NCBI GenBank assembly: GCA_046757165.1
Contig: JBHHXT010000003.1
Location: 1 to 64,000 of the forward strand
Length of the DNA stretch: 64,000 nt
Direction of reading: 5' to 3'
Source: a bacterium
GTDB taxonomy: Bacteria; Zhuqueibacterota; Zhuqueibacteria; Oceanimicrobiales; Oceanimicrobiaceae
The notes below the pieces were generated by a model. It was not told the origin of the DNA. It searched no databases and saw only the letters and a program-made list of their open reading frames with translations. Each line of letters begins with the position of its first letter. Position 1 is the stretch's first letter. This document shows, one piece after another, positions 14,151 to 45,541 of this stretch. Made by a program: the position numbers and the translations under genes.

Positions 14151-14345
14151 CTAATTCTGCTCGGGAAAGAGTTCATAAACCGAGACTTTGAGAACCGCTG
14201 CGACTTTTTCCTTGAATTCGTCTGTGGGTTCCACCCGTCCGTTTTCAACCATAGAAAGATAAGGGGCGCTACACTTCAGTTTACTCGCCAGCTCATACTG
14301 TTTGACCCCCATTTCCCATCGTTTTATTTTGAGCCTGTTCTTCAT
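14151..14345 (-). CDS. XRE-family HTH regulator
   Basis: QYELA...SAPYLSMVENG; GGAG RBS. Confidence 0.8.
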   Translation of the reverse strand: MKNRLKIKRWEMGVKQYELASKLKCSAPYLSMVENGRVEPTDEFKEKVAAVLKVSVYELFPEQN

Positions 14346-14377
14346 GGCTCCCTTTTTGATACGTGGCGCACTCCAGG

Positions 14378-15814: not shown

Positions 15815-15901
15815 GGTTCGAAATCCTAAACTCTAAATTCGAAAAGAACTGGGCCTGCAAAAAGCCTTGCCCAGGAGTGGCAGAAGATAACTCGTCCGCG
15901 C

Positions 15902-16651
15902 CTAACGGTCATAGAATAATACAGCGCGAAGATAGAGATCGAGCGGCGGCAAAAAGCCAGAATAGACCTGCCGCATGAAATCTGAAACGCTGGCCACAAA
16001 AGTCTTGGGAACATAGACGATATCATGCGGCTGGAGATAAACGTCGTTGCCGTAAATCTCCGACTCCTGCTTCGCCTTCAGCGGCTGCCGCACGTCTACT
16101 TTGAGCGCCTCCACCTTGTCCGATTGTCCACGTCGCAGCACCATGACGCTGCCGAGCCTGGCAGAGAGTTTGGGGCCGCCGGCGGTGGCCAGGGCCTGCA
16201 AGACCGTCATATTGCGCTGAACCGCGTACCCGCCCGGCGAGGTGACTTCCCCGAGCACATAAACCTGGTAGCCGCCAAATTCGCGCACGATAACGGTCAC
16301 CTCCGGTTCGATGACAAACTCTGCGTAAGTGTGAGTAATCACACTATCCAGTTGTGCCGGGGTCATGCCGGCGACCCGCATCTCGCCAACTTTTGCCAGG
16401 CTGACCCTGCCGTCGGGCCGGACCACCAGAGTCTCGTTGAATTGCGGGTTGCGAAAGAACTTGACTTCCACCACATCGCCAAAGCCCAGACGATATTCGG
16501 GCAACACGGAGGATGTCCGGGTGGAAGCGAAGAGCGGCCCTTTTCCAGTCATCCGTGCGGGACCGGCGGTCTGGACTCCCGGATGACTGGAACACGCCCA
16601 GATGGCGAGCGAGAGGTGGAGAAACGCAGTCGCTGCATGTCTTGCTTGCAT
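15902..16651 (-). CDS. wza: Wza-type polysaccharide export lipoprotein
   Basis: Lipobox-like IWAC, YRLGFGD, VRPDGRVSL, VYVLGEV SLBB motif. Confidence 0.85.
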   Translation of the reverse strand: MQARHAATAFLHLSLAIWACSSHPGVQTAGPARMTGKGPLFASTRTSSVLPEYRLGFGDVVEVKFFRNPQFNETLVVRPDGRVSLAKVGEMRVAGMTPAQLDSVITHTYAEFVIEPEVTVIVREFGGYQVYVLGEVTSPGGYAVQRNMTVLQALATAGGPKLSARLGSVMVLRRGQSDKVEALKVDVRQPLKAKQESEIYGNDVYLQPHDIVYVPKTFVASVSDFMRQVYSGFLPPLDLYLRAVLFYDR

Positions 16652-21320: not shown

Positions 21321-21385
21321 GACACCTTCTTAATTGTTGCTTCTCGAGATACCTGAGGGTCGATCGTGGACCCTCGAGTCAGTGA

Positions 21386-23881: not shown

Positions 23882-26448
23882 TTCTTGGGTAGATTGAACT
23901 CGATCAGATTCAAAGCCGCTGCGCTGATCACTACAGACTGCTCCCGGTACTCATAGCCATTCTTGCTGGTGCGAAAAAGATAGAGCCCGGGTGCGAGGCT
24001 GCCGTTGACCGTCCCTTCCTGATCGGTAATGTCAAACCGCTCGGGTGTGGCCGCGGGATTGTCCAGGGATTTGAGCCTGACTTCGACATTGCTGAGCGGG
24101 GCGTGTGTTTCTTTGTCGAGGATGACAACCGAGTAGCGGCCGTTGGCCGGCTCCATTCTGGCGGTCACAATCCTGTCCCTGGCCGAAACCTTGATGCGCA
24201 CATCTTTGTAGCCCGCTTTTGAAAAGGTCGCATAGTACTCCTGTGGCGCGAGATTGACCACAAAAGGCGTGCGCCTGCCGGCTAAGACGGTTTTCTTGCC
24301 GCGCACCAACCTGGTGACAGCGGCTTTCAAATCTTTGCTCTTGCCATCGGTTGCGTCATAGGCCACAAACCTGACCTTGCGAGTCAATGACGCAAACATC
24401 TTTTCAGGCGTCTTGTTATTGACCATCACCGTGAGGGTGCGTGGGTTGTAGCCTTTTTTCTCGAGCACAATTTTGTGCCTGGCCGCGGTCAAAAAAACGC
24501 GACTCTTGCCGGTCGTGCCGACAGGATTCGGGTTGTTGTCGAGGTAAATGGCCGCGTTCTCCGGCGTCGAATGGATGACGACATACTTCCCGAAACGGCC
24601 GCGCACTTTGTAATGTAGCGTTGGGTTCGTGACCTTTTCAAACGACCACAACCGCCGGTCGTCGATCTCCTCCAGCATCTCTTCGGTATCGAGCGCAAAG
24701 CCGGTCAGCTCGCTGAAGCCGGCTTTGGCGAGCTCGAGCTCGCAGCGCTCCCCGACTTCCCAGGTCACCGAGCAGGGGGTTGTCTGGCCATACTTGACAT
24801 TGTTGATGTAAACCTGAGCGCCCGATGGCTCAGATGCAATCTCCAGTGTTGTCTTGAAGCGAAAAGTGTACGGAGCGTTGCCGTTGCGCATCTGTTCCCC
24901 CTTGACTTCCGCCTGGCCTTTTCCCGGAACGAACAAAGATTTCACAATCGGCCGGTAGGGCTCGAGCTTGAGCTTGAGCTCGTAGACCCCGGGCTCGATC
25001 TTGTCGATGGTCAACGGGGTGACGCCTTTGATAAGCTTGTCATTCAAGTAGACCCGGGCGCCATTTGGCACAGAGACGACTTTTATGGCAGGGGGCAAGA
25101 TGAAGTCGTACACGCCCGCGCCAAGCCCTGTCCATTGAAAGAATACATCCAGAAGCAGAAACAAGGCCACGACTGCGCCGGTGATCCACAATGTTCGCTT
25201 CAGGCCACTGCGATTTTCGCGTGTGGAGAGTCGTACGACGTCGATGACCGTCTTTATCTCATCCCCCACCTCGAAGTAATCCGGTGGCTTGACCAGAGAC
25301 GTGGCAGTCGTGGGTTGTGGCAGGGAGGCCAGATTCTCTGTTTTGACTTCGTGCTTAGAGCGGCTGGTGTGCTCGCCATTCGCGACCTCGGTTTGCGAGG
25401 TGGAATTGTTCTGAACTCCCTGTGGAGCCGGGGATTTTTTTCCCACATCATCGAGCACCACATCAGAGAGTTCATCGGAATGTGCCAGTCCAAATTTCTT
25501 CACAGGCGGACTGAGGGGGCCCACAGGCTCTGTGCACACCCGGACAAAAGTGCCAAGCTCCGTGTCGATGGCTGCGGCATCGCTGTTCAACACCAGGTAC
25601 GTGACCAGATCGATATAAAACTGGTTGGCATTTTGATACCGTTTTTGCGGAGATTTCTCCAGGGCCTTGCTCATGACTTGCTGCAGCGGTTTGGGTACTC
25701 GAGCTGAGTGTTTGAGTTTGAGTCGGCCATTCCGCAGCGTTTCGATAATCATGTGCTGTTCCCGGTGGGAGAAGAACCGTCTGCCTTCCAGCAGCTCGTA
25801 CAAAACCAGACCGAGGGAAAAAATGTCCGAGCGCCTGTCCATCGTCAACGCCGCGTTGACATGTTCCGGCGACATGTACTGGACTTTGCCTTGCAGCATG
25901 AGCGAATCTTTTTCCTCGATCGCCGCCTTCTGGGCGCCCGCAATGCCAAAGTCGATGAGCTTGACGCCGCCGGATTTGGAAATCATGATGTTGCTCGGCG
26001 AGACGTCCTGGTGCACGAGGTTGAGCGGCTCGTGATTTTCCGTATTGCTGCAGTTGTGGGCATAATCGAGCGCCTTACAGATTTCTGCCACGATGTGGAC
26101 GGCCAGATGTTGCGGCAACGCGCGCTCCTTCGCTTTGCTTTGCTTTAACAAGGTGCTCAGGTCCAGGCCATCGATGTACTCCATGACGATGTAGAATTGT
26201 CCCGAGTCCGTCCGCACCAGATCGAAAATGTGAACAATGTTCTGGTGGTTCATCTTCGCGACGTGACGGGCTTCCTTCTGGAACTGCTCGATATACCAGG
26301 CGTCCTGCAAGAGATCGCGATTGATTTCCTTGACGGCGATGTCTTTGGCCAGCACGCTGTCGTAGCCCTTGTAGATGGTGCCAAATCCCCCGCGCTTGAT
26401 CACCGTGATGAGCTGATAGCGGTTGTTGAGTAGCTTGAGCGCCTGCAT
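23878..26448 (-). CDS. Membrane Ser/Thr kinase with PEGA repeats (copy B)
   Basis: RGGFGTIY, IAVKE, HQDVSPSN, DFG, YMSPE; TM; S-x-P-x-GA-x-VY...G-x-TP PEGA repeats. Confidence 0.9.
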   Translation of the reverse strand: MQALKLLNNRYQLITVIKRGGFGTIYKGYDSVLAKDIAVKEINRDLLQDAWYIEQFQKEARHVAKMNHQNIVHIFDLVRTDSGQFYIVMEYIDGLDLSTLLKQSKAKERALPQHLAVHIVAEICKALDYAHNCSNTENHEPLNLVHQDVSPSNIMISKSGGVKLIDFGIAGAQKAAIEEKDSLMLQGKVQYMSPEHVNAALTMDRRSDIFSLGLVLYELLEGRRFFSHREQHMIIETLRNGRLKLKHSARVPKPLQQVMSKALEKSPQKRYQNANQFYIDLVTYLVLNSDAAAIDTELGTFVRVCTEPVGPLSPPVKKFGLAHSDELSDVVLDDVGKKSPAPQGVQNNSTSQTEVANGEHTSRSKHEVKTENLASLPQPTTATSLVKPPDYFEVGDEIKTVIDVVRLSTRENRSGLKRTLWITGAVVALFLLLDVFFQWTGLGAGVYDFILPPAIKVVSVPNGARVYLNDKLIKGVTPLTIDKIEPGVYELKLKLEPYRPIVKSLFVPGKGQAEVKGEQMRNGNAPYTFRFKTTLEIASEPSGAQVYINNVKYGQTTPCSVTWEVGERCELELAKAGFSELTGFALDTEEMLEEIDDRRLWSFEKVTNPTLHYKVRGRFGKYVVIHSTPENAAIYLDNNPNPVGTTGKSRVFLTAARHKIVLEKKGYNPRTLTVMVNNKTPEKMFASLTRKVRFVAYDATDGKSKDLKAAVTRLVRGKKTVLAGRRTPFVVNLAPQEYYATFSKAGYKDVRIKVSARDRIVTARMEPANGRYSVVILDKETHAPLSNVEVRLKSLDNPAATPERFDITDQEGTVNGSLAPGLYLFRTSKNGYEYREQSVVISAAALNLIEFNLPKK

Positions 26449-26515: not shown

Positions 26516-27715
26516 TTAGTTGTTGATATATGCCACTTCTTTCCTGTCCAGCAGTCTCGGGAAATAAGGCGGTGTCCGTTCTTTCAGCCTTAGATCATAG
26601 ACGTGGTTGCGCAGGTAACCATTTGCGACCGTGCCACCGACGACCACGCCGGACGGTCGGTCCTGATAGACGGCCAGCGAGCCGAACATGGTCAGAGTGC
26701 CTTTGGGGCCTCCTGTGCTGTACCCGTCGACCTTGAACTCGTTCAGGGCCATCATGGCCGCGTCGATTTCAACATTGGTGAAATCCTTCTTCACCCGGAT
26801 GTTGTGCTTGGCGATCAAGCCAAGATAGTCATTTGAGCCTTGCATGCTTCTGGGATCGTTGAGGTAAACGATCGAGCTGTCGACTACGATGTCGTGCTCG
26901 GCCAGGATGGTGACCTGCCCGCCAACCACGCCCTTGATGTGAATATTGTTGGTCCCGGTCAGCATGATCGTCCCGTTTCTAGCACTGATCAGGGAGTTGC
27001 CGGAGGCCGCGCCTTGCGTCCAATCATAGGAGCTGTCGGCTTTGAAAGTCAGGTGCAGGTCGGCGCCGGCAAAGAGATGACCGCCGGCAGTGATGACCTG
27101 CTCGAGTGGCACCAGGGCGGCGTTGTTCGGCAAATGGATTGCGTCGATGCCGAATTCGACGCCGCCGAAGGCCCTCGCTTCAGTGGTCATGACGTCGACG
27201 ATGTTGAAGCCGCTGGCGGTAGAGGAGACTTTGCTGAAAAAAACGGGATTGCCGTCGATGGTGATGGAGGTATTGGCATGAATCGCTCCCACCAGCGTAT
27301 CGCCCGTGGTGTAAATGATATCCGAAAGCCAGGTTGCGCCGTCAACAAAGTAATAATAATAGGAATAGGCTGGCCGCATCATCACAATTGTGGTAGAATC
27401 GGCGACGCCGTCATAGGTACAGACGATGGTCATGAGACTCTTCTTGGCTTCGGTCGTCGAGTCAGCGGTAATGTCTTGCAACATCAACTCGCAACTGACG
27501 TCGCCGAATGAGAAGGTTCCGGCAGCATTGGTTGACTTTATCGCCTTTGAAATGACAACGTTGCTGATGCTTTCTTTGGCATTGCGAGCGATGATTTTCT
27601 TGTATTGCTCCACAAGCGCCCGTGAGGAGCGTTGCTGGCTGGAGGTCACATTGAACATCATACCGCCGAAAATGGTGGAGAAGCCCAAAACGATGATCAA
27701 AAGCGCTCTACCCAT
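26516..27715 (-). CDS. PilX-like minor pilin with large C-terminal domain
   Basis: MGRALLIIVL hydrophobic N-terminus, IARNA...S helix, GAIHAN, YDLRL...PPYFP C-terminus. Confidence 0.6.
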   Translation of the reverse strand: MGRALLIIVLGFSTIFGGMMFNVTSSQQRSSRALVEQYKKIIARNAKESISNVVISKAIKSTNAAGTFSFGDVSCELMLQDITADSTTEAKKSLMTIVCTYDGVADSTTIVMMRPAYSYYYYFVDGATWLSDIIYTTGDTLVGAIHANTSITIDGNPVFFSKVSSTASGFNIVDVMTTEARAFGGVEFGIDAIHLPNNAALVPLEQVITAGGHLFAGADLHLTFKADSSYDWTQGAASGNSLISARNGTIMLTGTNNIHIKGVVGGQVTILAEHDIVVDSSIVYLNDPRSMQGSNDYLGLIAKHNIRVKKDFTNVEIDAAMMALNEFKVDGYSTGGPKGTLTMFGSLAVYQDRPSGVVVGGTVANGYLRNHVYDLRLKERTPPYFPRLLDRKEVAYINN

Positions 27716-27733
27716 TTCGATTCCCCTAATTGT

Positions 27734-28324
27734 TTAATCAAAATCCGTGTCGCTGATCTTTACCAGATTCTGCGGCACAATCCGTTTGTTCCAAACAACC
27801 CGCGGATACTTCTCGTCGTAGGCGTACAGACTCTCCACGGTCAGCGAGACGTCCAGCATCCTCACCTCCGAGAGGTCTGCGGGGACCGCGGCAAGCTCGT
27901 CGAGCAGCCGGACCGAAAAGCCGACCACGCCGGCGGGCGTGTCCACGGTGTTGACGCCGTCGACCACGCGGTAGAGAATGAAATCGTTGGGGTTCTGGGT
28001 CGCAGCAGCATCAGTATCAGATGGAAGACTGGTGTAGTAGCGCACGAGCTCGGGTGCGCCGTCTTCATTGAGATCGGCCCAAAACGTGATGTCCGAGCTG
28101 TCCGGATTGGCGACGATGGGCGGTAGCGACACCGGCAGACCGGAGCCCATCTTGCGGAAATCACTCTCGATGATTTCCATCAAAGATGCGGTGGATTCTT
28201 GCGCCATCAGCTCGTAGGTCTTTTCCTGCGCGTGCTCGACCAGCCCGCCGTAAAAGCGCATCACACTCAGAAGGAAAAGGCCGCCGATGGCAATACTGCC
28301 GGTCAAGGCAAACATATCGTTCAT
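27734..28324 (-). CDS. PilW-like minor pilin
   Basis: N-terminal hydrophobic helix, DFRKMGS (pilin-like D-x-R-x-x-G), C-terminal IVPQNL. Confidence 0.6.
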   Translation of the reverse strand: MNDMFALTGSIAIGGLFLLSVMRFYGGLVEHAQEKTYELMAQESTASLMEIIESDFRKMGSGLPVSLPPIVANPDSSDITFWADLNEDGAPELVRYYTSLPSDTDAAATQNPNDFILYRVVDGVNTVDTPAGVVGFSVRLLDELAAVPADLSEVRMLDVSLTVESLYAYDEKYPRVVWNKRIVPQNLVKISDTDFD

Positions 28325-28335
28325 GACATCACCCC

Positions 28336-28818
28336 CTAATTCTTTTTGTAAGCAAAAACGTATTGCGCCTGCACCAGATTGGGCAGATACACTGTGTCGA
28401 CCCGGACGGTCAACTTTTTGTAGAAGGTCTGATAGGCCACCGGTAGGCTCAGATCTGCCTCGTCGACATAATTGACCTGAACAGAAACCTCCATCGGCCC
28501 GATAGCAGTCGTGACTGTTCTGGTCAGACCATTAAAATCATCGACGTCATCCACGTTGGGATAGCCTTCGGCACCTCCCGCGCCAAGGGAAAGCGTGAGT
28601 TGGGCCGGGGAGGTGACTGTGCTGTTGATCGTACTTTCATCAAACGCTTTCAGCTTTGCTTCTTCGACAAATCGCTGCGCTAAGCTGAGCGCGACAAACT
28701 CCGCCTGTTGGCCATAGATAGCGTCAGCATGTGTCATGCTGAGGCGATTGACCGTCACGGTGGTTAGAGAAAAAGTCATCAGTGCTGCGATGGTTAGCAA
28801 AAGTTCACGATGTCCCAT
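28336..28818 (-). CDS. PilV-like minor pilin
   Basis: MGHRELLLTI; A-x-x-LA-x-x-x-x-EE helix; DDVDDFNG; KKLTVRV. Confidence 0.6.
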   Translation of the reverse strand: MGHRELLLTIAALMTFSLTTVTVNRLSMTHADAIYGQQAEFVALSLAQRFVEEAKLKAFDESTINSTVTSPAQLTLSLGAGGAEGYPNVDDVDDFNGLTRTVTTAIGPMEVSVQVNYVDEADLSLPVAYQTFYKKLTVRVDTVYLPNLVQAQYVFAYKKN

Positions 28819-28820
28819 GA

Positions 28821-30056
28821 TTACCTCCTGCGACGACTGCTCCGGCCGTTGCGGGCTTTGTTGCCGTTGGCCGATTTCAACTGTCGCACTTTTCTCCTGA
28901 ATTCCTGACGTTTTTTTTCAATGTTGACTCTTTTGTTCGCTGCCCGCGCCGCGATTCGTTCTGCAACCGTGGGCAGGACGCTGGCTTGCAGGATAATGAT
29001 CAGCTCCCGTTTGGTGACCTGTTTGGAGTTGTACCCGAATAGATAGCGCAAGCCAAAAAACCACGGCGGCAGGTCCTTCAAGATTGGGATGCCGCGCCGG
29101 GTGCTGCTGACCTGGTTGGAAAACAACCCGGCGATAATCGTCTCCTCACCGTTGAGCAGCAGGACCTGGGTGTTGCTTTCGGTGATCGCTTTGGTCACTG
29201 CAACCGGGTCGGGGTTGACGCTGCTGCGCTCTGCGTCGATGTCCAGATGAATAAAAAGCGAGTCCGGCCGGCCGATGACCTGTGGGGTCACGGTCAAGAT
29301 GATGCCGGATTCATATTCGGTAAAGCGCGTGTTGCCGGCAAAATCCCGCGTGGTCAAGAAGAAGTTGGTGCCCACTTTGATCTTGCCTTCCTCGCCGTCG
29401 AGCACTTTGATCTGTGGGTTGGCGATGACTTCCCCTTTGTCCAGCGACTCGAAGGTGCGCAGCAGGGCAAACACATCCCAGGTTTGCACCCGGTTGCGTA
29501 ATTCAACGTTGAACAGATCCTTTGTCACTTCATTCGCAAATTTGCTATTGACCCGCACGCGCCCGTCCTTGAGCAAAGACCAGTCGATGCCGGCCTCGGC
29601 CAGGGTGGCATAATCCGCCTCGAAAAACACCGCGTGGATTTCAATTTCGCGCGTTGAGGTGTCGATCAGATCTTCCGGTTCCGGCTTCTGGCCGGCACCG
29701 GTCGCAGACTCGAGCAAGGGCACGACTTCGTAGTATCGCTGTTTCTCGTTATATTTCATCAGGTTGGAGCGCAGAATGTATTCCAGCGCCCGTTTCCAGT
29801 ACATGTTGTTGACCATGACGCTGATCGGCTTGCTGCTTTCTTCGGTGTCGATGATGGTCTTGCCTTCGAACTTCATGGAATACTGACTGAGTATGTCGAG
29901 CGCGGTCTTTAGCGGCAGACTGCGATCAAGGGTGACGCGCTCGTCGGAACGAATGAGGCGCGCCGGAAAGGTCTCTTGTGCCAGGGTGTTTTCTATGTTG
30001 AAATAAACACAAAGCATGGCTATCATCAGGATGCTTAAACGATTTTTTGCTGTCAT
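28821..30056 (-). CDS. Short secretin (PilQ/GspD family)
   Basis: IEIHAVFFE, ANPQIKVLDGEEG, GIILTVTP, GEETIIAGL, GIPILKDLP, ELIII. Confidence 0.85.
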   Translation of the reverse strand: MTAKNRLSILMIAMLCVYFNIENTLAQETFPARLIRSDERVTLDRSLPLKTALDILSQYSMKFEGKTIIDTEESSKPISVMVNNMYWKRALEYILRSNLMKYNEKQRYYEVVPLLESATGAGQKPEPEDLIDTSTREIEIHAVFFEADYATLAEAGIDWSLLKDGRVRVNSKFANEVTKDLFNVELRNRVQTWDVFALLRTFESLDKGEVIANPQIKVLDGEEGKIKVGTNFFLTTRDFAGNTRFTEYESGIILTVTPQVIGRPDSLFIHLDIDAERSSVNPDPVAVTKAITESNTQVLLLNGEETIIAGLFSNQVSSTRRGIPILKDLPPWFFGLRYLFGYNSKQVTKRELIIILQASVLPTVAERIAARAANKRVNIEKKRQEFRRKVRQLKSANGNKARNGRSSRRRR

Positions 30057-30095
30057 TATTAAGACTACTTCCGAATCTGTGCGACTTCTCCGAAT

Positions 30096-31010
30096 CTAAT
30101 TTCTCTCATTAATGGTCAGAATGATTCTCTCCGTCTTGCCGAATTTGGTCAACATAAATTCTGCCTCGTTGCGTTGTTGATTGATCCTGACCAGTCGGCC
30201 GAGGTAGACAGAGTCGCCAACTTTCAACTCCTTGACGGTGCCCGATTCATCTGCCATGAAGACCGAGCCGGACGTCACGGCCTTCAAAGAGGCTTTCTGG
30301 ACGTCAATTTCCCCGGGCTTTCGTTTGGGAAGCTGCGGTTTAGGCCGGGGTTTGGGCGGTGTTTTCTTGACTTCAACGATAGGCTTCGGCACAACCAGGG
30401 CTTTAAAAATATCGTACTGGCGTGGCAGTGCATTCGTCTGCATTCCGGAGAAATCTGCCAGGTCCTCAGTCATCTCTGATTGGCTGTCAACAGAAAACCC
30501 GTTCAACTTCATCGCGAACTTGACATAGTCGAAATCATCTTGTCGACGGGTCAGGGTGATGGTGTCAATGATATACAAGATAGGCTCATAGGTCAGATGC
30601 CAGATCAATTGAACGATATCGTTGTACGGTCCCTCGCCCGCCAGGGTGTAGGTGAATTTGGTGACCAGGTCTGTTTTATCTTTCGAATTCAGCACAAAAT
30701 CATAGTAGATATTCAGATTGTACGTCGAGACGATCCAGTTGATGTAGGAGAGCGTGAACGACGGCTCGTCTGCTGAGATGATTCGTTTCGGAGACTGCTG
30801 CCAGTGTTTGCTCAACTCTTCGTGGATGCTCTCGACATCGGTCAGGCGCCGCACCTCGTTTTGCGACTGGGACAGCAGCTCGCTCACTTTTTTCTCCTGG
30901 TCGATGGCGCTCACGAGCTTATTGGCATCTCTCAAATACATAAACGTGCCAACGATCAAAATCAAGATCCAGATGATGGCTAAAGTCAGGCTGTTTCGTC
31001 TTGCAAACAC
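30096..31010 (-). CDS. PilO-like protein with PilP-like C-terminus
   Basis: N-terminal TM and coiled coil, GEGPYNDI PilO-like segment, Pro-rich linker, LKVGD...GRLVRI. Confidence 0.6.
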   Translation of the reverse strand: MFARRNSLTLAIIWILILIVGTFMYLRDANKLVSAIDQEKKVSELLSQSQNEVRRLTDVESIHEELSKHWQQSPKRIISADEPSFTLSYINWIVSTYNLNIYYDFVLNSKDKTDLVTKFTYTLAGEGPYNDIVQLIWHLTYEPILYIIDTITLTRRQDDFDYVKFAMKLNGFSVDSQSEMTEDLADFSGMQTNALPRQYDIFKALVVPKPIVEVKKTPPKPRPKPQLPKRKPGEIDVQKASLKAVTSGSVFMADESGTVKELKVGDSVYLGRLVRINQQRNEAEFMLTKFGKTERIILTINERN

Positions 31011-31038
31011 GGTTTTCCTCTAGGTTGCCGGGTCAGGG

Positions 31039-33099
31039 TTATGGACGTTTCTTGTATTTGATGATCGTGTTATCGATGCCAGACTCGCTTGCCAGCAGCT
31101 CCGACAACTTTTGCGCATCGTTGTACCGGATGAAGGCTCCGACCACAAGCGCGTACTTGCTTTCTTTCGCGCGTGGATTGCGCCTGGAAATCTTGACGGC
31201 GTACCCTCTCTTCTTGAATTTCTTGGATTCGAGCGCGGCCGCTTTGCTCGAGTCGAACGAGCCGATTTGCAGACCAAAGACGTAGACGCTGTCACGACCG
31301 TTGGCAGCGGAGGCAATCTTGCTCTCGGGTTTCTTGCTGGCGCCACCTTGCTGGCCATTGGTCACCAAATCTTGCGGGGCCATCTTTGTGGCAGCTCTCC
31401 TGACGTGCGCGACCCCGTTCGTTGACTTGCTGGCTCCGTTGCCGGCTGTGGTGCCGGCCAGAGCCACCTGTTGAGCTGGCGGTTGCTCCTGCTGCGATTT
31501 TCCGCTCCTGCTGCGCAGGAAAGTCATGAGGTCAAAGGCCTCTTTTTTTTCTGGCGCGTCGAGCTCCTTTTCCAGGTTGAAGAGAAAGACATTTGTTTCT
31601 TCGTACCCCGAGCGGGTGACCTTCTTCAAATTCGCGCCGCCGATGGAGGTGGCCAGGTGCGGGATCTTGTCTCGCCGTTTAGCCATGCCCGTCAGGCTGA
31701 TCTGATTGTCGCTTTTCTTCAGCTCGGTGAGCCAGATGCTGCCGGTCGCTGGCACGTTGCGGTTCAGGAGCTGGAGAAACTTCATGGTCTCATCGTAGCC
31801 GGTGCTGAAGCTGTCGACCAGAGCAATCTTTCTTTCCATGGCGACGATTTGATCATCGAAGGAATGCACTCTCTCTGTCAGCGACTTATTGTCGTCGATC
31901 TGAGTTTGCATGTTTTTGATGCGGGTGGTGATCTTTCTGAGTTCGATGTTTTTCACCACCAGGGCCCACGTGAACGAGAAAGCTGATGCGGCCAACAAAA
32001 ACATGAAGATATAGCCGTGCACCGCCAGCTTCGGCATGGTTTGCCGCTCCAGAATGTATTCGGGCAGCAGGTTCTTGTTTTTAGCCTTGTACGAACGCTT
32101 GAGGAGTGCTTTCCAGGCCAGCGCGATGGGTACAGCGTAGCGCGAAAATAGCAGACCCCGGTCCTTGAACCGCAGGTCTGACTGAATCTTCTTGGAGTTC
32201 AGGTAGCCGGTGACCGCCGAAGGGAATTTTTGCCGAAAGTAGTATTTCGCCTTCAGGCGGGAAGAATGGCCGGCCACCAGAATCTTGTTCAATTCCGGAA
32301 TAAAGTAGTGGTCCTGTGCGAAGATCATCTTGCTGTAGATGACCTCCAGCACGTCTTTGGACATGCTTCCCTTGTGCACGATGGGCGTGATATGATAGAT
32401 GTCACGACCCTTTAAGAAGATGACGCGAGAAAAATCCTGCTCGATGTAGATGATGGCGGTAATCTCGTCCTTGTCAAATTTGTAAATTTCCTTGACCAGG
32501 TCTACCAGCGCCAGCTCGTTGGTGTCCATCAGCACCAGATTGAGATTACTCGCTCTGAACTGGTTGACTTCCTCAATGAGATCGATAATGGGTGGGTGGT
32601 GCTCGTAATCGACCTGCAGGATCTTGCTATCGCTGATATCGATATAATTCGTGCGCCTGGCTTCCTCGTTGTCTCCGCGCCAGATTTCCATCCGTTCTTT
32701 CAAGCGCTTCTTGCGGTTTTGCGGCGCATGCTCTTCTTCGATAACATCATACTTGACGGTCAGGTGCGGTGAATTGATGGCCACGTTGGCCTTGATATGC
32801 TGAAACTTGTCGAGCAAGGAATAGATCTGGCTGACAGTCTTGTCATGTTCGGGCTCATTTGACTCTTCGCTATGCGCCTCGTCAGGGTCGAGTTTTGGCT
32901 CTTGAATCTCGAAGGCATTCTCCAGGTCGTTGAGAGAATCCGGCCCGGTTTTGCCCGGGTTGCGAATGCGGTCCAGGGGGGCATCCAGCTTGATGGACTC
33001 CAGCGCTTTGATGCGCGCCTTCCCGCGAACCAGGCTGAGAAACGCTGCTCTCACCTCGTTGCCGTTGATCGTAATGCCGATTGCGTGTCTGATCTTCAC
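31039..33099 (-). CDS. PilM-like / PilN-like / SPOR fusion
   Basis: IGITING actin-like start, NLLP before the TM, IWLTEL...LTG PilN core, C-terminal LQIGSF...Y-x-LVVGAF SPOR pattern. Confidence 0.7.
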   Translation of the reverse strand: MKIRHAIGITINGNEVRAAFLSLVRGKARIKALESIKLDAPLDRIRNPGKTGPDSLNDLENAFEIQEPKLDPDEAHSEESNEPEHDKTVSQIYSLLDKFQHIKANVAINSPHLTVKYDVIEEEHAPQNRKKRLKERMEIWRGDNEEARRTNYIDISDSKILQVDYEHHPPIIDLIEEVNQFRASNLNLVLMDTNELALVDLVKEIYKFDKDEITAIIYIEQDFSRVIFLKGRDIYHITPIVHKGSMSKDVLEVIYSKMIFAQDHYFIPELNKILVAGHSSRLKAKYYFRQKFPSAVTGYLNSKKIQSDLRFKDRGLLFSRYAVPIALAWKALLKRSYKAKNKNLLPEYILERQTMPKLAVHGYIFMFLLAASAFSFTWALVVKNIELRKITTRIKNMQTQIDDNKSLTERVHSFDDQIVAMERKIALVDSFSTGYDETMKFLQLLNRNVPATGSIWLTELKKSDNQISLTGMAKRRDKIPHLATSIGGANLKKVTRSGYEETNVFLFNLEKELDAPEKKEAFDLMTFLRSRSGKSQQEQPPAQQVALAGTTAGNGASKSTNGVAHVRRAATKMAPQDLVTNGQQGGASKKPESKIASAANGRDSVYVFGLQIGSFDSSKAAALESKKFKKRGYAVKISRRNPRAKESKYALVVGAFIRYNDAQKLSELLASESGIDNTIIKYKKRP

Positions 33100-33179
33100 C
33101 TGTTTTGCCCCTCGTTGCCGTTGATCGTAGTTCCGATTCCGTCTCTGTTCTTTACCTGTATGCCCCTGATGATCAGCGG

Positions 33180-34412
33180 CTAGTAATTGTATTGTACCAG
33201 TTCCTCAAATCGCTTCTTGTTGTTGGCGTTGATGTACGCTTCAAAATAGGAGATCTTGTTCTCAGAGTACAGCCTGGCTAAATCCTGTTCCATGGTGTTC
33301 ATGCCCTGCTCGCGGGACTGTTGAATGACCTGATAAATTTCTCCGAGATTGTCGTTGCGAATCGCCGTCCGGATCGCGTTATTGCTCAGGAGAACCTCCT
33401 TGGCCAGCACCCGTTTGCCATCTTCACTTGCCACCAGCTTTTGTGAAATGACGCAGCTTAGCACATCGGCCAATCTTGTGCGAATACGGTGCTGATCGCC
33501 GGAGGGGACCTCGCCCAGAATGCGATCGACGCTCTCGACCGCCGAGGGGGTGTGCAACGTGGAGAACACTTTGTGACCGCTATCCACCACTTCCAGGACG
33601 GTCATGATGGTCTCGGCGTCGCGCATCTCACCGATCATGATGATGTCGGGATCCTGGCGCAAGGCTTGAATCGTGCCTTCCTTGAACGTGTGCACGTCAC
33701 GGCCGATCTCCCGGTGCTTGACAATCGACTTGATGGGTTGATGCACGTACTCGACCGGGTCCGCGATGATGACGATGTGCGCCTCCATCGTGCGATTGTT
33801 GGCGTCGATAATGGAATCCAGCGTGGTACTTTTGCCCGAGCCGGTGATACCGGTCACCAGAATCAAGCCGGATTTCTGGTACTTCAGGCTGAGGACTTTG
33901 GCCACTTCTTCGTGAAAGCCAAGTTTTGGAAAACTGATAACACTGTTGTTGACCCGGCGCATGTTGACCGCCAGATGGGTCAGGTCGAAATAGACGGTGG
34001 CGCGAAAGCGTGTCCAGCTATTGACCTCCTTATCGAAGACACGGTACGAAAAATCCATGTTGCGCTGCATGAAAAGCTGCTTGCGCTCCTCATCGGTCAG
34101 CAGGTTCAGGATGAGCATATCCGTTTCTTCGACCTCATAGACCGGCAGGGAGTTGTCCGGGCCTTTGGTGCCAAAGCACCGAAACCAGACCTGGTTGTGG
34201 CATCCCGGCCCGCCCAGGTCGATGTCCGACGCCTGCAATTGCTTCATCCGCATGAGAAAGGCATCAAAATGATTTTTGAGCGCAAGTTTGGTCTCTTCCG
34301 GCTGGTCTTCGAGTAAGTCGGAGATGTACTGCCACCGCTTGTGCGCGACCGGATGCGCTTTGATTTGGCTGCCTAAACTTGCGACGAGTTCTTTGCTTGT
34401 TTTGAAATCCAT
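33180..34412 (-). CDS. pilT: PilT/PilU-family retraction ATPase
   Basis: GITGSGKSTT, ALRQDPDIIMIGEMRD, GHKVFSTLHT, AIRTAIR, GMNTMEQ. Confidence 0.85.
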   Translation of the reverse strand: MDFKTSKELVASLGSQIKAHPVAHKRWQYISDLLEDQPEETKLALKNHFDAFLMRMKQLQASDIDLGGPGCHNQVWFRCFGTKGPDNSLPVYEVEETDMLILNLLTDEERKQLFMQRNMDFSYRVFDKEVNSWTRFRATVYFDLTHLAVNMRRVNNSVISFPKLGFHEEVAKVLSLKYQKSGLILVTGITGSGKSTTLDSIIDANNRTMEAHIVIIADPVEYVHQPIKSIVKHREIGRDVHTFKEGTIQALRQDPDIIMIGEMRDAETIMTVLEVVDSGHKVFSTLHTPSAVESVDRILGEVPSGDQHRIRTRLADVLSCVISQKLVASEDGKRVLAKEVLLSNNAIRTAIRNDNLGEIYQVIQQSREQGMNTMEQDLARLYSENKISYFEAYINANNKKRFEELVQYNY

Positions 34413-34433
34413 CGGTCTCTTGTCATAGTGCCA

Positions 34434-34471
34434 AAAAGGTTAGCTTCTGAAACTCCTGAGGCTAACCTTTT
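34434..34471 (-). terminator. Intrinsic-terminator-like hairpin between pilB and pilT
   Basis: AAAAGGTTAGC...GCTAACCTTTT 11-bp stem with a T-run on either strand. Confidence 0.55.
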
Positions 34472-34596
34472 CCGTCCTGGTACCCGAGGCTGTCCCAAAA
34501 GCTGCTGAACCACATGAGTTGCTCAAGCTCGGGAGATTCCGGCCTTGTGCCGGAATGACACTTTGTGGTTTGTCTTTATTTGATTGTTTAGCGTTC

Positions 34597-36429
34597 TTAC
34601 GTTTCTACTGTCGCTGCAATGATTTCACTCATGGTTGTTTGCCCTGCCATGATTCGTTTTCTGCCGGAGTCTCGCAGGGACAACATGCCTGTGCTTTCGG
34701 CCAGGCTTCTTACGGCTTCATCGTCGATGTCGTTTTTGGCGGCCAGAATGATCTTGCGTAATTCCCGGTTGAACAGAAGCGCTTCGCTGATCGCCACGCG
34801 GCCTCGATAGCCATCGAAGCATTGGTCGCAGCCCACCGGAGTGTAAAACTGCGTATTGGCGGCTTCCTCTTTGGAAAAATTCAGCCGGAGCAACTGGTCC
34901 GGATTGGGATCGTCGTTTGCCACCTTGCAATGGTCACACAGCTTTCTGACCAGACGCTGCGCCATCACCAGGTTGATGGCGTTGGCGATGAGAAAGGGCT
35001 CGACACCAAGCATGTAGAGCCGTGAGACGGCACTGGGCGCGTCGTTAGTATGCAAGGTCGAAAAGGTCAAGTGCCCGGTGTTGGCCAGGGAAATGGCAAT
35101 TTCGGCTGACTTCAGGTCGCGAATCTCACCGACCATCACGATATCCGGGTCGTGCCGCAGGATGGATCTGAGCGCCTGGTCAAAATTCAGCTTGGGATTG
35201 AGCTTGATCTGCCGGGCGCCGGCAATGAGATATTCCACCGGCTCTTCGACGGTGAGAACGTTCTTGCTCGGGTCCGTCACATGGCTCAGCGCTGCGACCA
35301 GCGTCGTGCTTTTGCCGCTGCCGGTTGGTCCGGTGAGGATGACCATCCCTTGCGGCTGCTCGATCGCTTTCTTGAAATCGTTGAGCGCTTGCTGCTGCAA
35401 CCCTATTTTCTCCAGCTCCGTGATTACTTTTCTGTCGTCCAGGATGCGGACGACCACGCTCTCAAACCGGCGATCGAACTCGACCCCGACGACGGGGAGG
35501 ACCGACACCCGGAACCGAATGTAGAAGCCGTCGATCTTGCGCTGAATATAGCCGTCCTGGGCAATGGAGCGGTCAAAGCGGTCGATGTTGATGGCGCGGT
35601 CCTTGACGACCGCTATCAGCGCTTCCGGCTTGATCTCGGTTTGCGTGTACCAGTGCAGAAGCTTGCCGTCGATGCGGAAGTAAATGTCGGTCTTGTTGCC
35701 GTCTTTTGGAATCATGTGGACGTCGCTGGCGCCGCGCCGCACCGATTCCACCAGCATGCCCTCCACCAGGTTCACCAGGCGGCTCTTGTTGATCTCAGCA
35801 TCCAGGGCCTCTTCGTCGACCTTACGATTTTCGTCCTCAAAGACCTCAATTTCTTCCGCCTCATCGAAGACCTTCTGCAGGAATTCGTTGTTGGAATAAA
35901 AGATCTCGTGAATCAGGCGCTCGATGTCTTCCAGTCTCGAGTAGGCGATATCGATGTCTGCGATCTCGAGCTTTCTGGCAGCCTCATAAAGCTCCTGATT
36001 GGTCGGATCGCCGGTGACCAGAACCAGCACATCGCGCTTGTAATCGTGCCATTGGAACGGCAGGATCTTGTTGGCCAAAAGTTCATTCGAAATCGCCTCA
36101 GGCATCCCGTAGACGATTTCTTTGATAAACTCGATGCGGTCGCGGTCGATGCCGGTCGGGGAGAGATCGATGACGGGAAAGCCATATAACTTGGATATTT
36201 CAACATAGATGAGATGCCGGTCGACCTTCAACTCGTCGATCAGGATGTCGAGGAGCTTGCGTTTGGCATTTCGGGGTTCACGACTCTGGATATCCGCCGC
36301 CTTTTGCAGCATCTCTTCGTTGACGACGCCCCGGGCGACCAGCGCCTGTGACAAACGCCCGAGACTTTTGGTTCCCGGCCTGAGATTGATCTCTGCTGTA
36401 ATCGTGGTTTTTTCTGCTTTTCTAACCAT
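34597..36429 (-). CDS. pilB: PilB/GspE assembly ATPase
   Basis: GPTGSGKSTT, LRHDPDIVMVGEIRD, TLHTND, CDHC...CDQC Zn motif, MshEN-like N-terminus. Confidence 0.9.
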   Translation of the reverse strand: MVRKAEKTTITAEINLRPGTKSLGRLSQALVARGVVNEEMLQKAADIQSREPRNAKRKLLDILIDELKVDRHLIYVEISKLYGFPVIDLSPTGIDRDRIEFIKEIVYGMPEAISNELLANKILPFQWHDYKRDVLVLVTGDPTNQELYEAARKLEIADIDIAYSRLEDIERLIHEIFYSNNEFLQKVFDEAEEIEVFEDENRKVDEEALDAEINKSRLVNLVEGMLVESVRRGASDVHMIPKDGNKTDIYFRIDGKLLHWYTQTEIKPEALIAVVKDRAINIDRFDRSIAQDGYIQRKIDGFYIRFRVSVLPVVGVEFDRRFESVVVRILDDRKVITELEKIGLQQQALNDFKKAIEQPQGMVILTGPTGSGKSTTLVAALSHVTDPSKNVLTVEEPVEYLIAGARQIKLNPKLNFDQALRSILRHDPDIVMVGEIRDLKSAEIAISLANTGHLTFSTLHTNDAPSAVSRLYMLGVEPFLIANAINLVMAQRLVRKLCDHCKVANDDPNPDQLLRLNFSKEEAANTQFYTPVGCDQCFDGYRGRVAISEALLFNRELRKIILAAKNDIDDEAVRSLAESTGMLSLRDSGRKRIMAGQTTMSEIIAATVET

Positions 36430-36442
36430 AGTTCACTTCAGT

Positions 36443-37786
36443 TCACTTCGATAGCGGTGATGGAGGACTCACAAATCCGATTTCAGATGACACCAGGGTC
36501 AAGCCGACCACCAGTAAGGTGATAAATATCGAAACCATGACATTGATCATGTCGACCAGCTTGCTCATTTTATGTTTGGTTTCTGTTTCATAATAGTTTG
36601 CCAGTTGCAGCGCCGTCTCCCGCAGGGTTCCGGATTCCTCCCCGGACCGCAGTCGTCGGACGGCGGTCATCGTAAAGCAGTTGGCGCGGATGAGACATTC
36701 AACGAAGCTCTTGCCCTCTCTCAACATGCTCGGGATGACGTGCCCGGTGATTTGCTTTTCAATGTATTTGTTCCGGCATGATTCTGCCGCAATACGAATG
36801 GCGGTGATGTTCTCGCCCGAGCTGCTGTAGAGCGAGTAAAAGACGCGCGCAAAAATCTCGATGCTCGTCTTGTGCAGGATCGAACCTACAACGGGTACGC
36901 GTATCACAGTCCGGTCGAAAGTATATCTGCCTTTTTCCGTTCTGAGCCAATTGAAAAATAGCACGAGTGGGGTGATGAACAAGATGAAAAGTATGCCGTA
37001 GTAGTCCTGCAAAAAGTGGCTCAAGTCCATGGTTGCACGCGTCATCGGCGGGATATCAATGCTATACTTGGTCAGAATGTCTGTCATTTTGGGAAAAATG
37101 TACATGACATAGAACACCACGGCCGCGAGCATTCCCAGAGTGACAAACATGGGCATAAACAGGATGGTGCGCAGATTACTTCGAAATTCTTCATCCCGCT
37201 CCAGGAACCTTGCCGTGCTTTCGTAGATCGCTGCCATATTCCCGCTGGTGGAGGCCACGGCCATCATGTGTGCTGCAAACTTGCCGAACACGTCGACGTG
37301 TTTGCTGTAGACCATGTGACCTTCATTGCCGGCTTTCAGGTCCTTCTGGACATCGCGAATGGTCTCACGCAGCCGCCTGTTTTCGGTGTCATCGCCGACG
37401 AGCGTTAAAATCTCATCGTAAGGAAATTTCTCCCGCAACAGGTCCGAGCAGATTCGAATGAACAAGATCAAATCCTTGGTCGGGACCTTGAGTTTGAAGT
37501 TGAACACTTTCTTGCGGACGTAGAAAACCCGGTAGCCCATCTTGATCAGGGCATTCTGCAGCTCCTCTTTTGAAAACGCTTTTTGTTCACCAAAAAGCGG
37601 CTTCTCCCGTCCGCGCTGAACTTTGTAAGCAAAGAGCGTTTTCTTTTCAATGGCATCAATGCGAACGCCTTTGCTTTTGACCAGCCTTTTGACTTTTTCT
37701 TTGACCGTCTTGTCGTCCGGACTGAAGACGACGCCTTGAATCGGTTTTCCTGTGACGTTGACGCCGGTGTATCGGTATTCGGGCAT
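36443..37786 (-). CDS. pilC: PilC/GspF platform protein
   Basis: MPEYRYTG start, two T2SSF-like repeats, IPPMT, GEESGTL. Confidence 0.85.
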   Translation of the reverse strand: MPEYRYTGVNVTGKPIQGVVFSPDDKTVKEKVKRLVKSKGVRIDAIEKKTLFAYKVQRGREKPLFGEQKAFSKEELQNALIKMGYRVFYVRKKVFNFKLKVPTKDLILFIRICSDLLREKFPYDEILTLVGDDTENRRLRETIRDVQKDLKAGNEGHMVYSKHVDVFGKFAAHMMAVASTSGNMAAIYESTARFLERDEEFRSNLRTILFMPMFVTLGMLAAVVFYVMYIFPKMTDILTKYSIDIPPMTRATMDLSHFLQDYYGILFILFITPLVLFFNWLRTEKGRYTFDRTVIRVPVVGSILHKTSIEIFARVFYSLYSSSGENITAIRIAAESCRNKYIEKQITGHVIPSMLREGKSFVECLIRANCFTMTAVRRLRSGEESGTLRETALQLANYYETETKHKMSKLVDMINVMVSIFITLLVVGLTLVSSEIGFVSPPSPLSK

Positions 37787-37821
37787 GAAAATCGCTCTGA
37801 TTATGAATTCAATTTACACAA

Positions 37822-37850
37822 GTTGGGGTTGGACTGCGTCCAACCCCAGC
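37822..37850 (-). terminator. Stem-loop 3' of the putative major pilin gene
   Basis: TGGGGTTGGAC-TGC-GTCCAACCCCA 11-bp perfect stem. Confidence 0.6.
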
Positions 37851-37863
37851 CTGCCATGGTCGC

Positions 37864-38277
37864 TTATCTGTTGGTAATCGCGGTGGTGACCCCGTCTCGC
37901 GTTACGGTCGCGTCGATGGTGACGTTGACTGCATCTCCGTCCTGGTCTTCGACGCCCACAAAACGAAAAACCACTTGCGTCGCCGTGCCGGCCGTTTGGA
38001 TTGAATAGGTGCCATCCTCGGTGGTGGCGGGCCAGGTCAATTGCGCGGTCATGTCAGTGCCCGTTGCCAGGGCCACAAATGAGTTGCCGCCGCCGCCCGC
38101 CAGCACGGGTTTGCGGTACCAGTCACGTGCTCTTTCAGAAAGCGTCAGGATGCCTTGCATGCCGGCGTCCTGGTTGGCCCGGCCGGCGCTGGTGGTGACC
38201 ATGTTGATGCCAACCGCGATTGAAATCCCAACAATGATGGTGCTGAGAACGATGAGTAAAAGTTGCTGTTGTCCCAT
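37864..38277 (-). CDS. Putative major pilin with non-canonical N-terminus (MGQQQLLL)
   Basis: 137 aa, ~20-aa hydrophobic N-helix, first gene of the pilus block, AAGGAG RBS, downstream hairpin. Confidence 0.7.
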   Translation of the reverse strand: MGQQQLLLIVLSTIIVGISIAVGINMVTTSAGRANQDAGMQGILTLSERARDWYRKPVLAGGGGNSFVALATGTDMTAQLTWPATTEDGTYSIQTAGTATQVVFRFVGVEDQDGDAVNVTIDATVTRDGVTTAITNR

Positions 38278-40890: not shown

Positions 40891-40906
40891 TGCAAAATTC
40901 GGCTCG

Positions 40907-41317
40907 TTAAAGAGCGAAGCTCTTCATTCGTTTTAACTCCTTGTCTACCGCCCGTTCGATAAGCTTGATCGCCTCCGCATCCTTTCTGCCCTCGATGATG
41001 TAGTGCTTGGCGACCAGCGTGTACAGCTCGTCCCGCCACTCAAATGGGATCTTGAATCGCAGGATAAGCTCGAATACTTTCATGGCGCGCCTGTCGCGAC
41101 GATTCTCGAGATAATAGATTCTTGCCAACTTTCGGTACACCTGCAACTTCTCCGGGCTCTGCTGCACCAGAGATTCCAGTATTCGGCCTGCTTTGCGGTC
41201 ATTGCCTCGCCAGAGCCAGATACTCGCCCGCAATTCCGGCGAAAGCCAGATAATGCCGAAAATCAGGCTCGAGACCAGCAAAACAATGGGCAAAACGAAC
41301 AGCTCCATCTTCGTCAT
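40907..41317 (-). CDS. Small TM + TPR-like protein
   Basis: N-terminal TM; LA-x-x-Y-x-LE-x-RRD-x-x-A-x-K-x-FE pattern shared with the tail of 19482-21320. Confidence 0.75.
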   Translation of the reverse strand: MTKMELFVLPIVLLVSSLIFGIIWLSPELRASIWLWRGNDRKAGRILESLVQQSPEKLQVYRKLARIYYLENRRDRRAMKVFELILRFKIPFEWRDELYTLVAKHYIIEGRKDAEAIKLIERAVDKELKRMKSFAL

Positions 41318-41392
41318 TCCGTTTCCACCGAAGAGTTTTCAGTGGCGTTTATTATTCTCCCCTCCAGCGCAGGTCCAACCACCAGGCAGCCC

Positions 41393-42751: not shown

Positions 42752-42767
42752 GGTTTATCAGCGCAGC

Positions 42768-45530: not shown

Positions 45531-45541
45531 TTACTTAAAGC

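Follow-up and report, generated by a model that had tools for sequence, protein, structure and literature searches.

An operon in contig JBHHXT010000003.1 of assembly GCA_046757165.1, from a bacterium of the Oceanimicrobiaceae (Zhuqueibacterota), raises the question of how a type IV pilus might be built from pilins that have no recognizable leader. The window analyzed here is the stretch of 64,000 nucleotides at positions 1 to 64,000 of that contig (C3 in our numbering of a genome of 6.1 Mb in 531 contigs, with a completeness score of 99.98%), and ten consecutive pilus genes run along its minus strand from 38277 to 26516. In canonical systems, the prepilin peptidase PilD cuts the leader and Glu5 forms a pair with a neighboring subunit's N-terminal amine, and the review passages that describe these steps treat the class III signal, a hydrophilic leader with Gly or Ala at its end ahead of a hydrophobic stretch, as invariable among type IV pilins and the prepilin peptidase as required before assembly (PMC10191384). 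The family to which this operon belongs fails these two defining tests of a type IV filament, the class III signal and a genome-encoded A24 peptidase. It is nonetheless a real, conserved, and expressed type IV pilus variant that probably assembles without prepilin peptidase.

An earlier note on this DNA had read four unusual pilin N-termini from the open reading frames (ORFs) of the minus strand, and all four are confirmed there. Its observation that none carries a basic leader also stands, as the four window pilins gave no N_methyl or prepilin-model match in Pfam or NCBIfam. Each of the four ATGs is the first ATG, GTG, or TTG following the preceding in-frame stop, which lies 2 codons upstream in pilA, 6 in the PilX-like gene, and 33 in the PilV-like gene, and a purine-rich, Shine-Dalgarno-like run is found 5′ of every start. 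Re-examination for upstream in-frame starts thus confirmed the true Met and recovered no normal leaders. A scan for promoters and terminators around pilA found none, and a look for RNA sequencing runs covering this locus likewise listed none.

The same start recurs across 78 related loci, which belong to GTDB genomes bearing the titles KSB1, Ignavibacteria, Calditrichaeota, Zixibacteria, Balneolales, Kryptonia, and Bacteroidota, where 118 of 122 pilA-like ORFs begin Met-Gly-x-Gln-Gln (two of the other four are clipped by the locus end and two begin MANKE). The first codon of these 118 is ATG in 110 cases, TTG in 5, and GTG in 3, the next codons vary synonymously, and an in-frame stop lies within 10 codons upstream in 100 of them. 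Upstream starts with a normal leader were rejected as an explanation: six of the 118 copies have an upstream in-frame ATG, GTG, or TTG, and a leader motif was seen in none. The family listings of 53, 24, 19, and 21 aligned members of the four pilin families likewise contain no N_methyl.

The nearest named relative by pilin is a candidate division KSB1 genome (L011, 66% identity). Two queries returned 2305 and 5568 homolog clusters at 90% identity, and 1717 representatives were recovered at 50% identity (E ≤ 1e-10). N-terminal statistics were drawn from the 150 best of these 1717 representatives; 143 sequences starting Met/Leu-Gly/Ala were used, and 7 were set aside as fusions, fragments, or one longer gene call. 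Among the 143 major pilins, residue 2 is Gly in 140 (Ala in the other 3), residue 4 is Gln in 135, and residue 5 is Gln in 141. An acidic residue within positions 1-20 is found in none of them, any charge within positions 1-8 in two, and a Pro within 15-30 in one. The major pilin is often multicopy, with up to 10 per genome, and the present genome has an orphan second leaderless major pilin (G000:C312:132-524; TTG start, Thr3) that lies away from any pilus gene. The pilin head domain additionally occurs in tandem (2-5 copies) or fused to other domains (P0121, P0122, P0123, P0160, P0182, P0186, and P0256), in proteins that carry ordinary-looking signal peptides.

Structural models and profile comparisons identify all four subunits as true pilins. 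The AlphaFold model of the major pilin (pLDDT 94.5) consists of a predicted helix over residues 2-55 (54 residues) and a beta-sheet head, and a comparison with 48,161 chains ranks type IVa pilins as its top structural matches (Z 9.6, 9.5, 9.1, and 8.4), including 6xxd (Z 9.6, root-mean-square deviation (rmsd) 4.1, 114 aligned) and 5v23 (Z 9.5, rmsd 2.4, 88 aligned). Foldseek returned no match for the major pilin at E ≤ 0.001 (best E 0.019, to full-length PAK pilin), and PDB sequence searches gave a best E of 0.011 and nothing useful for the minor pilins. The model of the PilX-like protein (399 aa, pLDDT 88.5) matches Thermus ComZ 6qvi (Foldseek E 1.6e-7; Z 14.7, rmsd 10.2, 303 aligned) as well as GspK (Z 9.2, rmsd 2.9, 88 aligned). 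Atlas structures connect the PilV-like subunit to a cluster with 63% N_methyl (template-modeling score (TM) 0.84) and the PilW-like subunit to PilW/PpdB clusters (TM 0.75-0.79). A 574-aa protein elsewhere in the genome (G000:C85:16498-18222) shares the solenoid region of the PilX-like pilin (E 1.6e-48) and has a different N-terminal half.

We also aligned the four families with HHalign to mature canonical pilins, most of which come from operons of the same phylum that encode leader-bearing pilins (L089-L091 and L098-L102) and which we label PilA, PilV, PilW, and PilX by gene order and the usual nomenclature. The families paired one to one with these templates, at 93.9% for PilA, 95.0% for the PilV-like (8 templates), 85.2% and 94.9% for the PilW-like, and 94.4% for the PilX-like pilins, with all other family pairings at or below 6.2%. 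Templates of three sequences scored weakly (11.6% for PilV-like, 4.3% for PilX-like), and larger templates raised both above 94%. The alternative that these are non-pilin membrane proteins is rejected on the fold and profile matches; the doubt raised in the earlier note, that predicted structures might not be pilin-like, was not borne out. A complex prediction of the three minor pilins scored 0.69 against 0.64 for its control and is used neither way.

Judged from its gene content, the operon is a complete retractile type IVa-like pilus machinery that is conserved across several phyla. Its gene order, pilA-pilC-pilB-pilT-pilMN-pilO-pilQ followed by three minor pilins (160, 196, and 399 aa), recurs in related loci, where the three minor pilins shift as one block. 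Pfam matches over cut-off to PF00437, PF00482, and PF00263 account for the extension ATPase, the platform protein, and the secretin. Walker A/B motifs and the His box are intact in both PilB and PilT, PilT also has the AIRTAIR motif, and the presence of PilT implies retraction. The ATPases score best in NCBIfam as PilB and PilT rather than as TadA or FlaI types, and the signal for an archaeal-type/Tad/Flp class amounted to Pilin_N at E 0.047 in 2 of 53 family members. NCBIfam scores fall under cut-off for PilB, PilC, and PilQ and just under it for PilT, which marks the system as divergent, and the PilBs of these operons form one clade apart from ten canonical PilBs (33 rows, SH-aLRT (approximate likelihood-ratio) support 97, quick tree). 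The PilM, PilO, and PilP parts had no Pfam family match; PilM is named from position and length, and the PilO-like gene is kept at the same place in 35 of the 78 related loci.

Several features of the machine parts are of separate interest. In the PilC proteins of the leaderless family (median 449 aa, n = 48), the small N-terminal domain is apparently duplicated, and both halves of this region align to the single N-domain of four canonical PilC proteins (HHalign 96.8% and 96.1%). The duplication may be tied to the handling of uncut pilins. A second PilB paralog lies just upstream of pilA in one group of Ignavibacteria-type loci (L027, L030, L034, L035, L060, L069, L070, and L074); these copies form their own clade, some of them on long branches, and three upstream paralogs carry wrong labels in the tree owing to a score cut. 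In a 5-contig genome, the family PilB is in two pieces (G256:C2:397905-399709), reflecting either a frameshift or an assembly error.

We then consider whether a peptidase is available to these pilins. A scan of 34 window proteins, covering the ORFs to the right of 13 kb, found no A24 peptidase, as the earlier note had reported for PilD-like genes, and since whole-genome A24 matches fall on contigs C30 and C71 alone, there is none in the window. The genome-wide search showed, however, that the organism is not peptidase-free, with two intact-looking PilD genes that retain catalytic motifs. The C71 gene is inside a type II secretion system (T2SS) cluster together with canonical pseudopilins, which are the genome's only N_methyl matches. 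The C30 gene and its adjoining response regulator (G000:C30:1996-3254) best match the pair that heads canonical pilus operons L089-L091, at 42-44% and 42-50% identity. A further region, C158:2474-8817, keeps pilM and a PilP-like gene along with a secretin and a pilT split in two reading frames; a matching pilB, pilC, or set of pilins was not found. The C30 pilD and the C158 genes are apparently leftovers of a decaying ordinary type IV pilus. With two PilDs present, this genome alone cannot decide the question, and we therefore turned to its relatives.

None of the 78 related loci contains pilD. Beside the ten pilus genes, only response regulators recur, and no recurrent peptidase-like neighbor emerged from the gene clusters, which were read by first residues rather than against Pfam; a locus-linked alternative peptidase was rejected accordingly. 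From 50 of these loci we reached 50 genomes, a choice that favored long contigs. A match to the A24 family (PF01478) is absent in 30 of them, and N_methyl pilins occur in 16 of the 20 A24-positive genomes versus 1 of the 30 A24-negative ones. In a class sample centered on an Ignavibacteriaceae genome, 78 of 151 genomes carry the pilin and 70 of the 78 have no A24 match; in a phylum sample centered on a Balneolaceae genome, the corresponding figures are 87 of 201 and 75 of 87. The two samples overlap, and in their union 118 of 132 carriers (Ignavibacteria, Balneolales, and kin) are without an A24 match. Within the phylum of the present organism (at least 90% completeness), 59 of 113 genomes carry the pilin, counted as 62 matches minus three weak hits to canonical pilins, and 23 of the 59 are without A24 (22 of 58 minus the unpublished G304; ten of the 23 negative calls are taken from the family tally). 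Of these 22 A24-negative carriers, 19 have the family PilB and none has an N_methyl pilin.

Five carriers whose genomes are near-closed or of high completeness, among them a single-chromosome record and two assemblies (3 and 5 contigs), were searched more closely, and no PilD was found by protein query, PF06750, or PF06550. The PF06750 methylase domain was over cut-off in none of the five, and the one weak PilD match among them proved to be the ORF of an unrelated membrane protein. As a control, the A24 search gave matches in 12 of 14 control genomes, archaea included. Kin genomes are not independent, and the counts are given without a statistic. Because most carrier genomes have no A24 match, the argument for peptidase-independent assembly rests on the relatives: they, and not the present genome, support the suggestion in the earlier note of a peptidase-independent pilin class.

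One of these relatives is a cultured organism for which data have been published. The genome paper on Melioribacter roseus noted pilT, pilQ, pilB, and pilC, did not find pilA or pilD, and called the set probably incomplete (PMC3534657). We find that MROS_0599 of M. roseus is a member of the leaderless pilin family that went unrecognized in that paper, where the lack of a leader also drew no comment, and the pilus set was called incomplete because the family is missed as "hypothetical." In the rows of a proteome table, MROS_0599 is recorded in six of six membrane samples, at an emPAI (an exponentially modified index of protein abundance) of 1.68-2.20, compared with 0.08-0.17 for PilB (MROS_0597), so that the major pilin, an abundant membrane protein, stands at about ten times PilB (PMC5492636). 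The rows also record PilC, PilT, PilQ, MROS_0594, and MROS_0595 in at least one sample each. They place MROS_0599 in membrane fractions only and give no peptide sequences, and pili go unmentioned in the main text (PMC5492636). Peptide deformylase is expressed in M. roseus as well. The major pilin and its machinery are thus expressed in a genome reported to lack pilD.

The alignments indicate how the new N-termini correspond to the canonical ones. By HHalign, residue 4 falls at the canonical +1 in 10 of 12 PilA, 8 of 8 PilV-like, and 6 of 6 PilX-like comparisons, and most structural alignments of the major pilin give the same offset (28=25, 4=1). Met-Gly-x then occupies -3 to -1, which puts Gly2 at -2 and Leu8 at the place of Glu5, where Leu, Ile, Phe, or Thr is found in 143 of the 143 major pilins. 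A type IVa pilus would be expected to have Glu5 in its major and inner minor pilins and to lack it in the tip subunit. A register with Met1 as the canonical +1 and Gln5 as Glu5 was rejected on this offset of three and is kept as a functional analogy only. The earlier claim that the pilins lack Glu5 holds for the major pilin and fails for the PilV-like one, in which Glu is residue 5 from Met; by alignment to canonical pilins this Glu is at +2, with Leu8 at the Glu5 position, and the column holds Glu or Gln in 24 of 24 aligned homologs. The PilW-like subunit of the window has no Gly near its start, and 14 of 19 PilW-like subunits have Asp at the canonical +5. Across 29 PilV/PilW pairs, 20 combine Gln with Asp, 8 have the acid in the PilV-like subunit only (the pattern in the window, where the PilW-like has none), 1 has it in both, and 0 in neither. 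In the PilX-like subunits, Arg or Lys directly follows the Gly in 27 of 27. The hydrophobic stretch begins at residue 4-6 in all four pilins. Two Balneola pilin paralogs (L086:10509-10874 and L088:10507-10872) begin Met-Ala-Asn-Lys-Glu, and in these paralogs, as in 6 of 8 Glu-bearing PilV-like pilins, a basic residue beside the Glu at residue 5 keeps the start neutral.

These patterns suggest an assembly mechanism. In ordinary prepilins, a hydrophilic leader would keep the subunit membrane-bound up to its cleavage by PilD, after which Glu5 would neutralize the new amine. In the family studied here, three uncharged residues (Met-Gly-x) would be all that is left of the leader, the major pilin has no acid among residues 1-20, and PilB and PilC would draw an uncut subunit with a charge-free N-terminus out of the membrane. 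Its N-terminal amine would be hidden or blocked, most likely by a retained initiator N-formyl-Met, the signal anchor starting at residue 6, and hydrogen bonds of Gln4 and Gln5 would replace the Glu5 salt bridge. A single charge pair would be left at the tip, between the Arg or Lys of the PilX-like subunit and an acid on the PilV-like or PilW-like subunit, with the tip side chain standing in for the blocked amine. The joint loss of leader, acid, and usually enzyme would be expected if the N-terminus carries no charge to manage. [quoted passage not shown] We consider it highly likely that assembly is peptidase-independent, and likely that the operon's product is a complete, retractile type IVa-like pilus made of leaderless subunits that polymerize without prepilin-peptidase cleavage. 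Formyl-Met as the N-terminal state is put forward tentatively, at somewhat less than an even chance. The entire scheme, in which primary translation products polymerize with their formyl-Met and the Glu5 bridge gives way to a neutral Gln cap with a side-chain pair at the tip only, is possible and held more loosely still.

The alternative closest to this scheme keeps peptidase independence and differs in N-terminal chemistry alone: deformylase and methionine aminopeptidase would trim the pilin to a free, perhaps acetylated, Gly, with Gln4 and Gln5 as a cap or for tolerance. The near-exclusive use of Gly at residue 2 of the major pilin fits this idea, as does the expression of deformylase in M. 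roseus, and Met removal in the short PilW-like form would place the conserved Asp exactly at +5. However, 5 of 19 PilW-like subunits have Asn, Asp, or Lys as residue 2, and 2 of 24 PilV-like subunits have Asn there; aminopeptidase is not expected to process Asn, Asp, or Lys at this position. Ser, Thr, or Ala would serve equally well and yet are almost absent there in the major pilin, and trimming would leave a charged amine in proteins that have no acid among their first 20 residues. Passages of PMC5454389 do favor the idea in that N-in pilins would be reachable by deformylase; on balance we regard free Gly as unlikely, and less so than the alternatives that follow. A protease outside the A24 family might instead remove Met-Gly or Met-Gly-x, after which the exposed Gln would cyclize to neutral pyroglutamate. 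Gln4, present in 135 of the 143 pilins, does align to the canonical +1, Bacteroidetes are described in excerpts of two papers as cyclizing the N-terminal Gln of signal-peptidase substrates (PMC5837995, PMC10653852), and an alternative peptidase is proposed in part of a study of the mitochondrial T2SS (PMC8134430). The same excerpts confine the Q-rule to exported proteins and, reportedly, to less than the whole Fibrobacteres-Chlorobi-Bacteroidetes (FCB) group (PMC5837995, PMC10653852), and with minor pilins that have no Gln at the equivalent place, an SPP-family match in none of the five carriers, and no recurrent peptidase-like gene in the 78 loci, pyroglutamate formation is improbable.

Two further explanations retain either the peptidase or the membrane location. 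The earlier note had offered a minimal Met-Gly leader cut by PilD, which in this genome would have to act in trans, as MSHA loci borrow their peptidase. Both intact-looking PilD genes here, the A24 matches in all 14 family relatives, and the nearly invariant Gly2 speak for it, and so does the MSH precedent of loci without a peptidase in genomes with one, as given in sections of PMC6668835. Against it are the position of Gly2 at -2 rather than -1, a PilW-like pilin without Gly there, and most carriers being without an A24 match, the completely sequenced M. roseus among them; both PilDs are moreover otherwise explained, C71 by the T2SS and C30 as ortholog of the canonical pilus-operon pair. We give cleavage of such a leader only a very slight chance. 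The other explanation holds that no extended filament forms any more: the pilin-fold proteins would either remain within the inner membrane or assemble into no more than a short piston in the periplasm, used for secretion or for importing DNA. Uncut prepilins fail to assemble in model systems, according to passages of PMC10191384, the membrane-only record of the M. roseus pilin agrees with this, and pili in these taxa were not found in the papers searched. That PilT, PilB, the secretin, and the three-subunit tip set are kept intact across phyla argues otherwise, as does a major pilin that is often multicopy and, in the proteome rows, far exceeds PilB, as filament subunits do; a short pseudopilus would in any case still be peptidase-independent assembly. 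We consider the absence of a filament quite improbable.

A number of observations nevertheless weigh against peptidase-independent assembly from formylated, uncut subunits. The conservation of Gly2 goes well beyond what the mechanism would require, and Gly is favored by PilD; methionine aminopeptidase also favors Gly at residue 2. A24 peptidases occur in the present genome and in 14 of 14 others from its family, and in the class sample A24 is confined to carriers (8 of 78, versus 0 of 73 noncarriers). Most A24-negative genomes are metagenome-assembled, and the class and phylum samples (centered on G032 and G036) were drawn at a requested completeness of 95%, with the values themselves not displayed. 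The register rests on residues 6 onward, as the alignments start at 6-9, so an early gap is possible, and 6xxd aligns 2=1. The tip-charge pattern is phylogenetically clustered and perhaps reflects one or two events. Assembly is deduced from genes, models, and one membrane proteome. In addition, portions of PMC5454389 state that insertion of N-in proteins may be followed by their deformylation and that, overall, the formyl group is rarely retained.

Table 1 Coordinates of the ten pilus genes within the 64,000-nucleotide window.
Feature	Positions	Strand	Remarks
PilA-like major pilin, 137 aa	37864..38277	-	Met-Gly-Gln-Gln-Gln start; without leader, Glu5, or Pro22
PilC platform protein	36443..37786	-	PF00482 E 3e-32
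PilB extension ATPase	34597..36429	-	PF00437 and MshEN; best NCBIfam TIGR02538, 430 bits versus cut-off 676
PilT retraction ATPase	33180..34412	-	TIGR01420 best model, full length, 315.7 bits versus cut-off 319.1
PilM-PilN-like fusion	31039..33099	-	PilN PF05137 at 441-486 and C-terminal SPOR at 608-680, both over cut-off
PilO-like (possibly PilO-PilP) alignment protein	30096..31010	-	name based on position and on a membrane anchor at the N-terminus
PilQ secretin, short (411 aa)	28821..30056	-	PF00263 E 8e-28; best NCBIfam TIGR02515 PilQ, under cut-off
PilV/GspI-like minor pilin	28336..28818	-	Met-Gly-His-Arg-Glu start; HHalign 95.0% to canonical PilV-like
PilW/GspJ-like minor pilin	27734..28324	-	Met-Asn-Asp-Met-Phe start; HHalign 94.9% and 85.2% to canonical PilW-like
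PilX/GspK-like tip pilin, beta-solenoid insert (ComZ-like)	26516..27715	-	Met-Gly-Arg start; fold and profile matches

The operon is flanked on both sides by paralogous signaling blocks on the minus strand (38410-48118 and 17116-26448), each with a Ser/Thr kinase bearing PEGA domains, an FHA and FG-GAP protein, and a TPR-kinase, and with a PP2C phosphatase on one side. Similar signaling genes adjoin the pilin in a few close relatives, which makes phosphoregulation of the pilus possible. Farther downstream on the same strand (13045-16651) are polysaccharide export genes (Wza-like and Wzz/GNVR) and an AAA_22 ATPase. As for function, the predicted ComZ-like tip hints at DNA uptake or adhesion; ComEC is present in 5 of 5 carriers tested and 10 of 14 controls and does not decide the matter.

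Among known systems, the closest likeness is to the type IVa pili of diderms such as Thermus and Pseudomonas, which share the same parts including PilT, the pilin fold, and the one-to-one PilA/V/W/X set; the nearest canonical comparators are the leader-bearing operons of the same phylum used above as templates. The tip subunit resembles Thermus ComZ. In contrast to type IVa pilins, the major pilin lacks the class III leader, Gly -1, Glu +5, and Pro22 and has three extra N-terminal residues, PilD is missing from the locus and most carrier genomes, the PilC N-domain is apparently duplicated, and PilB falls in a separate clade. Loci for mannose-sensitive hemagglutinin (MSHA) pili likewise have no prepilin peptidase; according to sections of PMC6668835, however, their genomes always carry the peptidase of another system, whereas most carrier genomes here carry none, and MSHA is without PilT in the account given by part of PMC10191384, whereas PilT is present here. 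The mitochondrial T2SS is another type IV filament machine without a GspO homolog, as described in excerpts of PMC8134430, yet its GspG retains Glu+5 and the polar anchor, and a different protease is believed to cut it. In the present family, the signal itself is gone, and the system is a retractile pilus of free-living bacteria.

Some members of the family have been annotated automatically, as "Tfp pilus assembly protein PilE" by JGI and "hypothetical protein" by NCBI. We found no description of a leaderless pilin class in the open-access literature searched (subscription journals were outside the search), and the genome paper on I. album is silent on pili. One Ignavibacteriales pilin is listed as passing PilFind in a portion of PMC7399161.

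Pilin finders depend on the class III signal, and the rule they embody is broken in roughly half the genomes sampled from two phyla (59 of 113 and 87 of 201). Recognition of this family changes estimates of pili, and with them of adhesion, twitching, and DNA uptake, in Ignavibacteria, Balneolales, Calditrichota, and KSB1, and it may supply a pilin whose assembly needs no processing enzyme. It also makes testable, in a cultured and harmless organism, the purpose of the leader and of N-methylation, and whether Glu5 acts as an assembly driver or as a charge canceller. If formyl-Met polymers prove true, leader cleavage, methylation, and Glu5 would together be one dispensable module for charge management.

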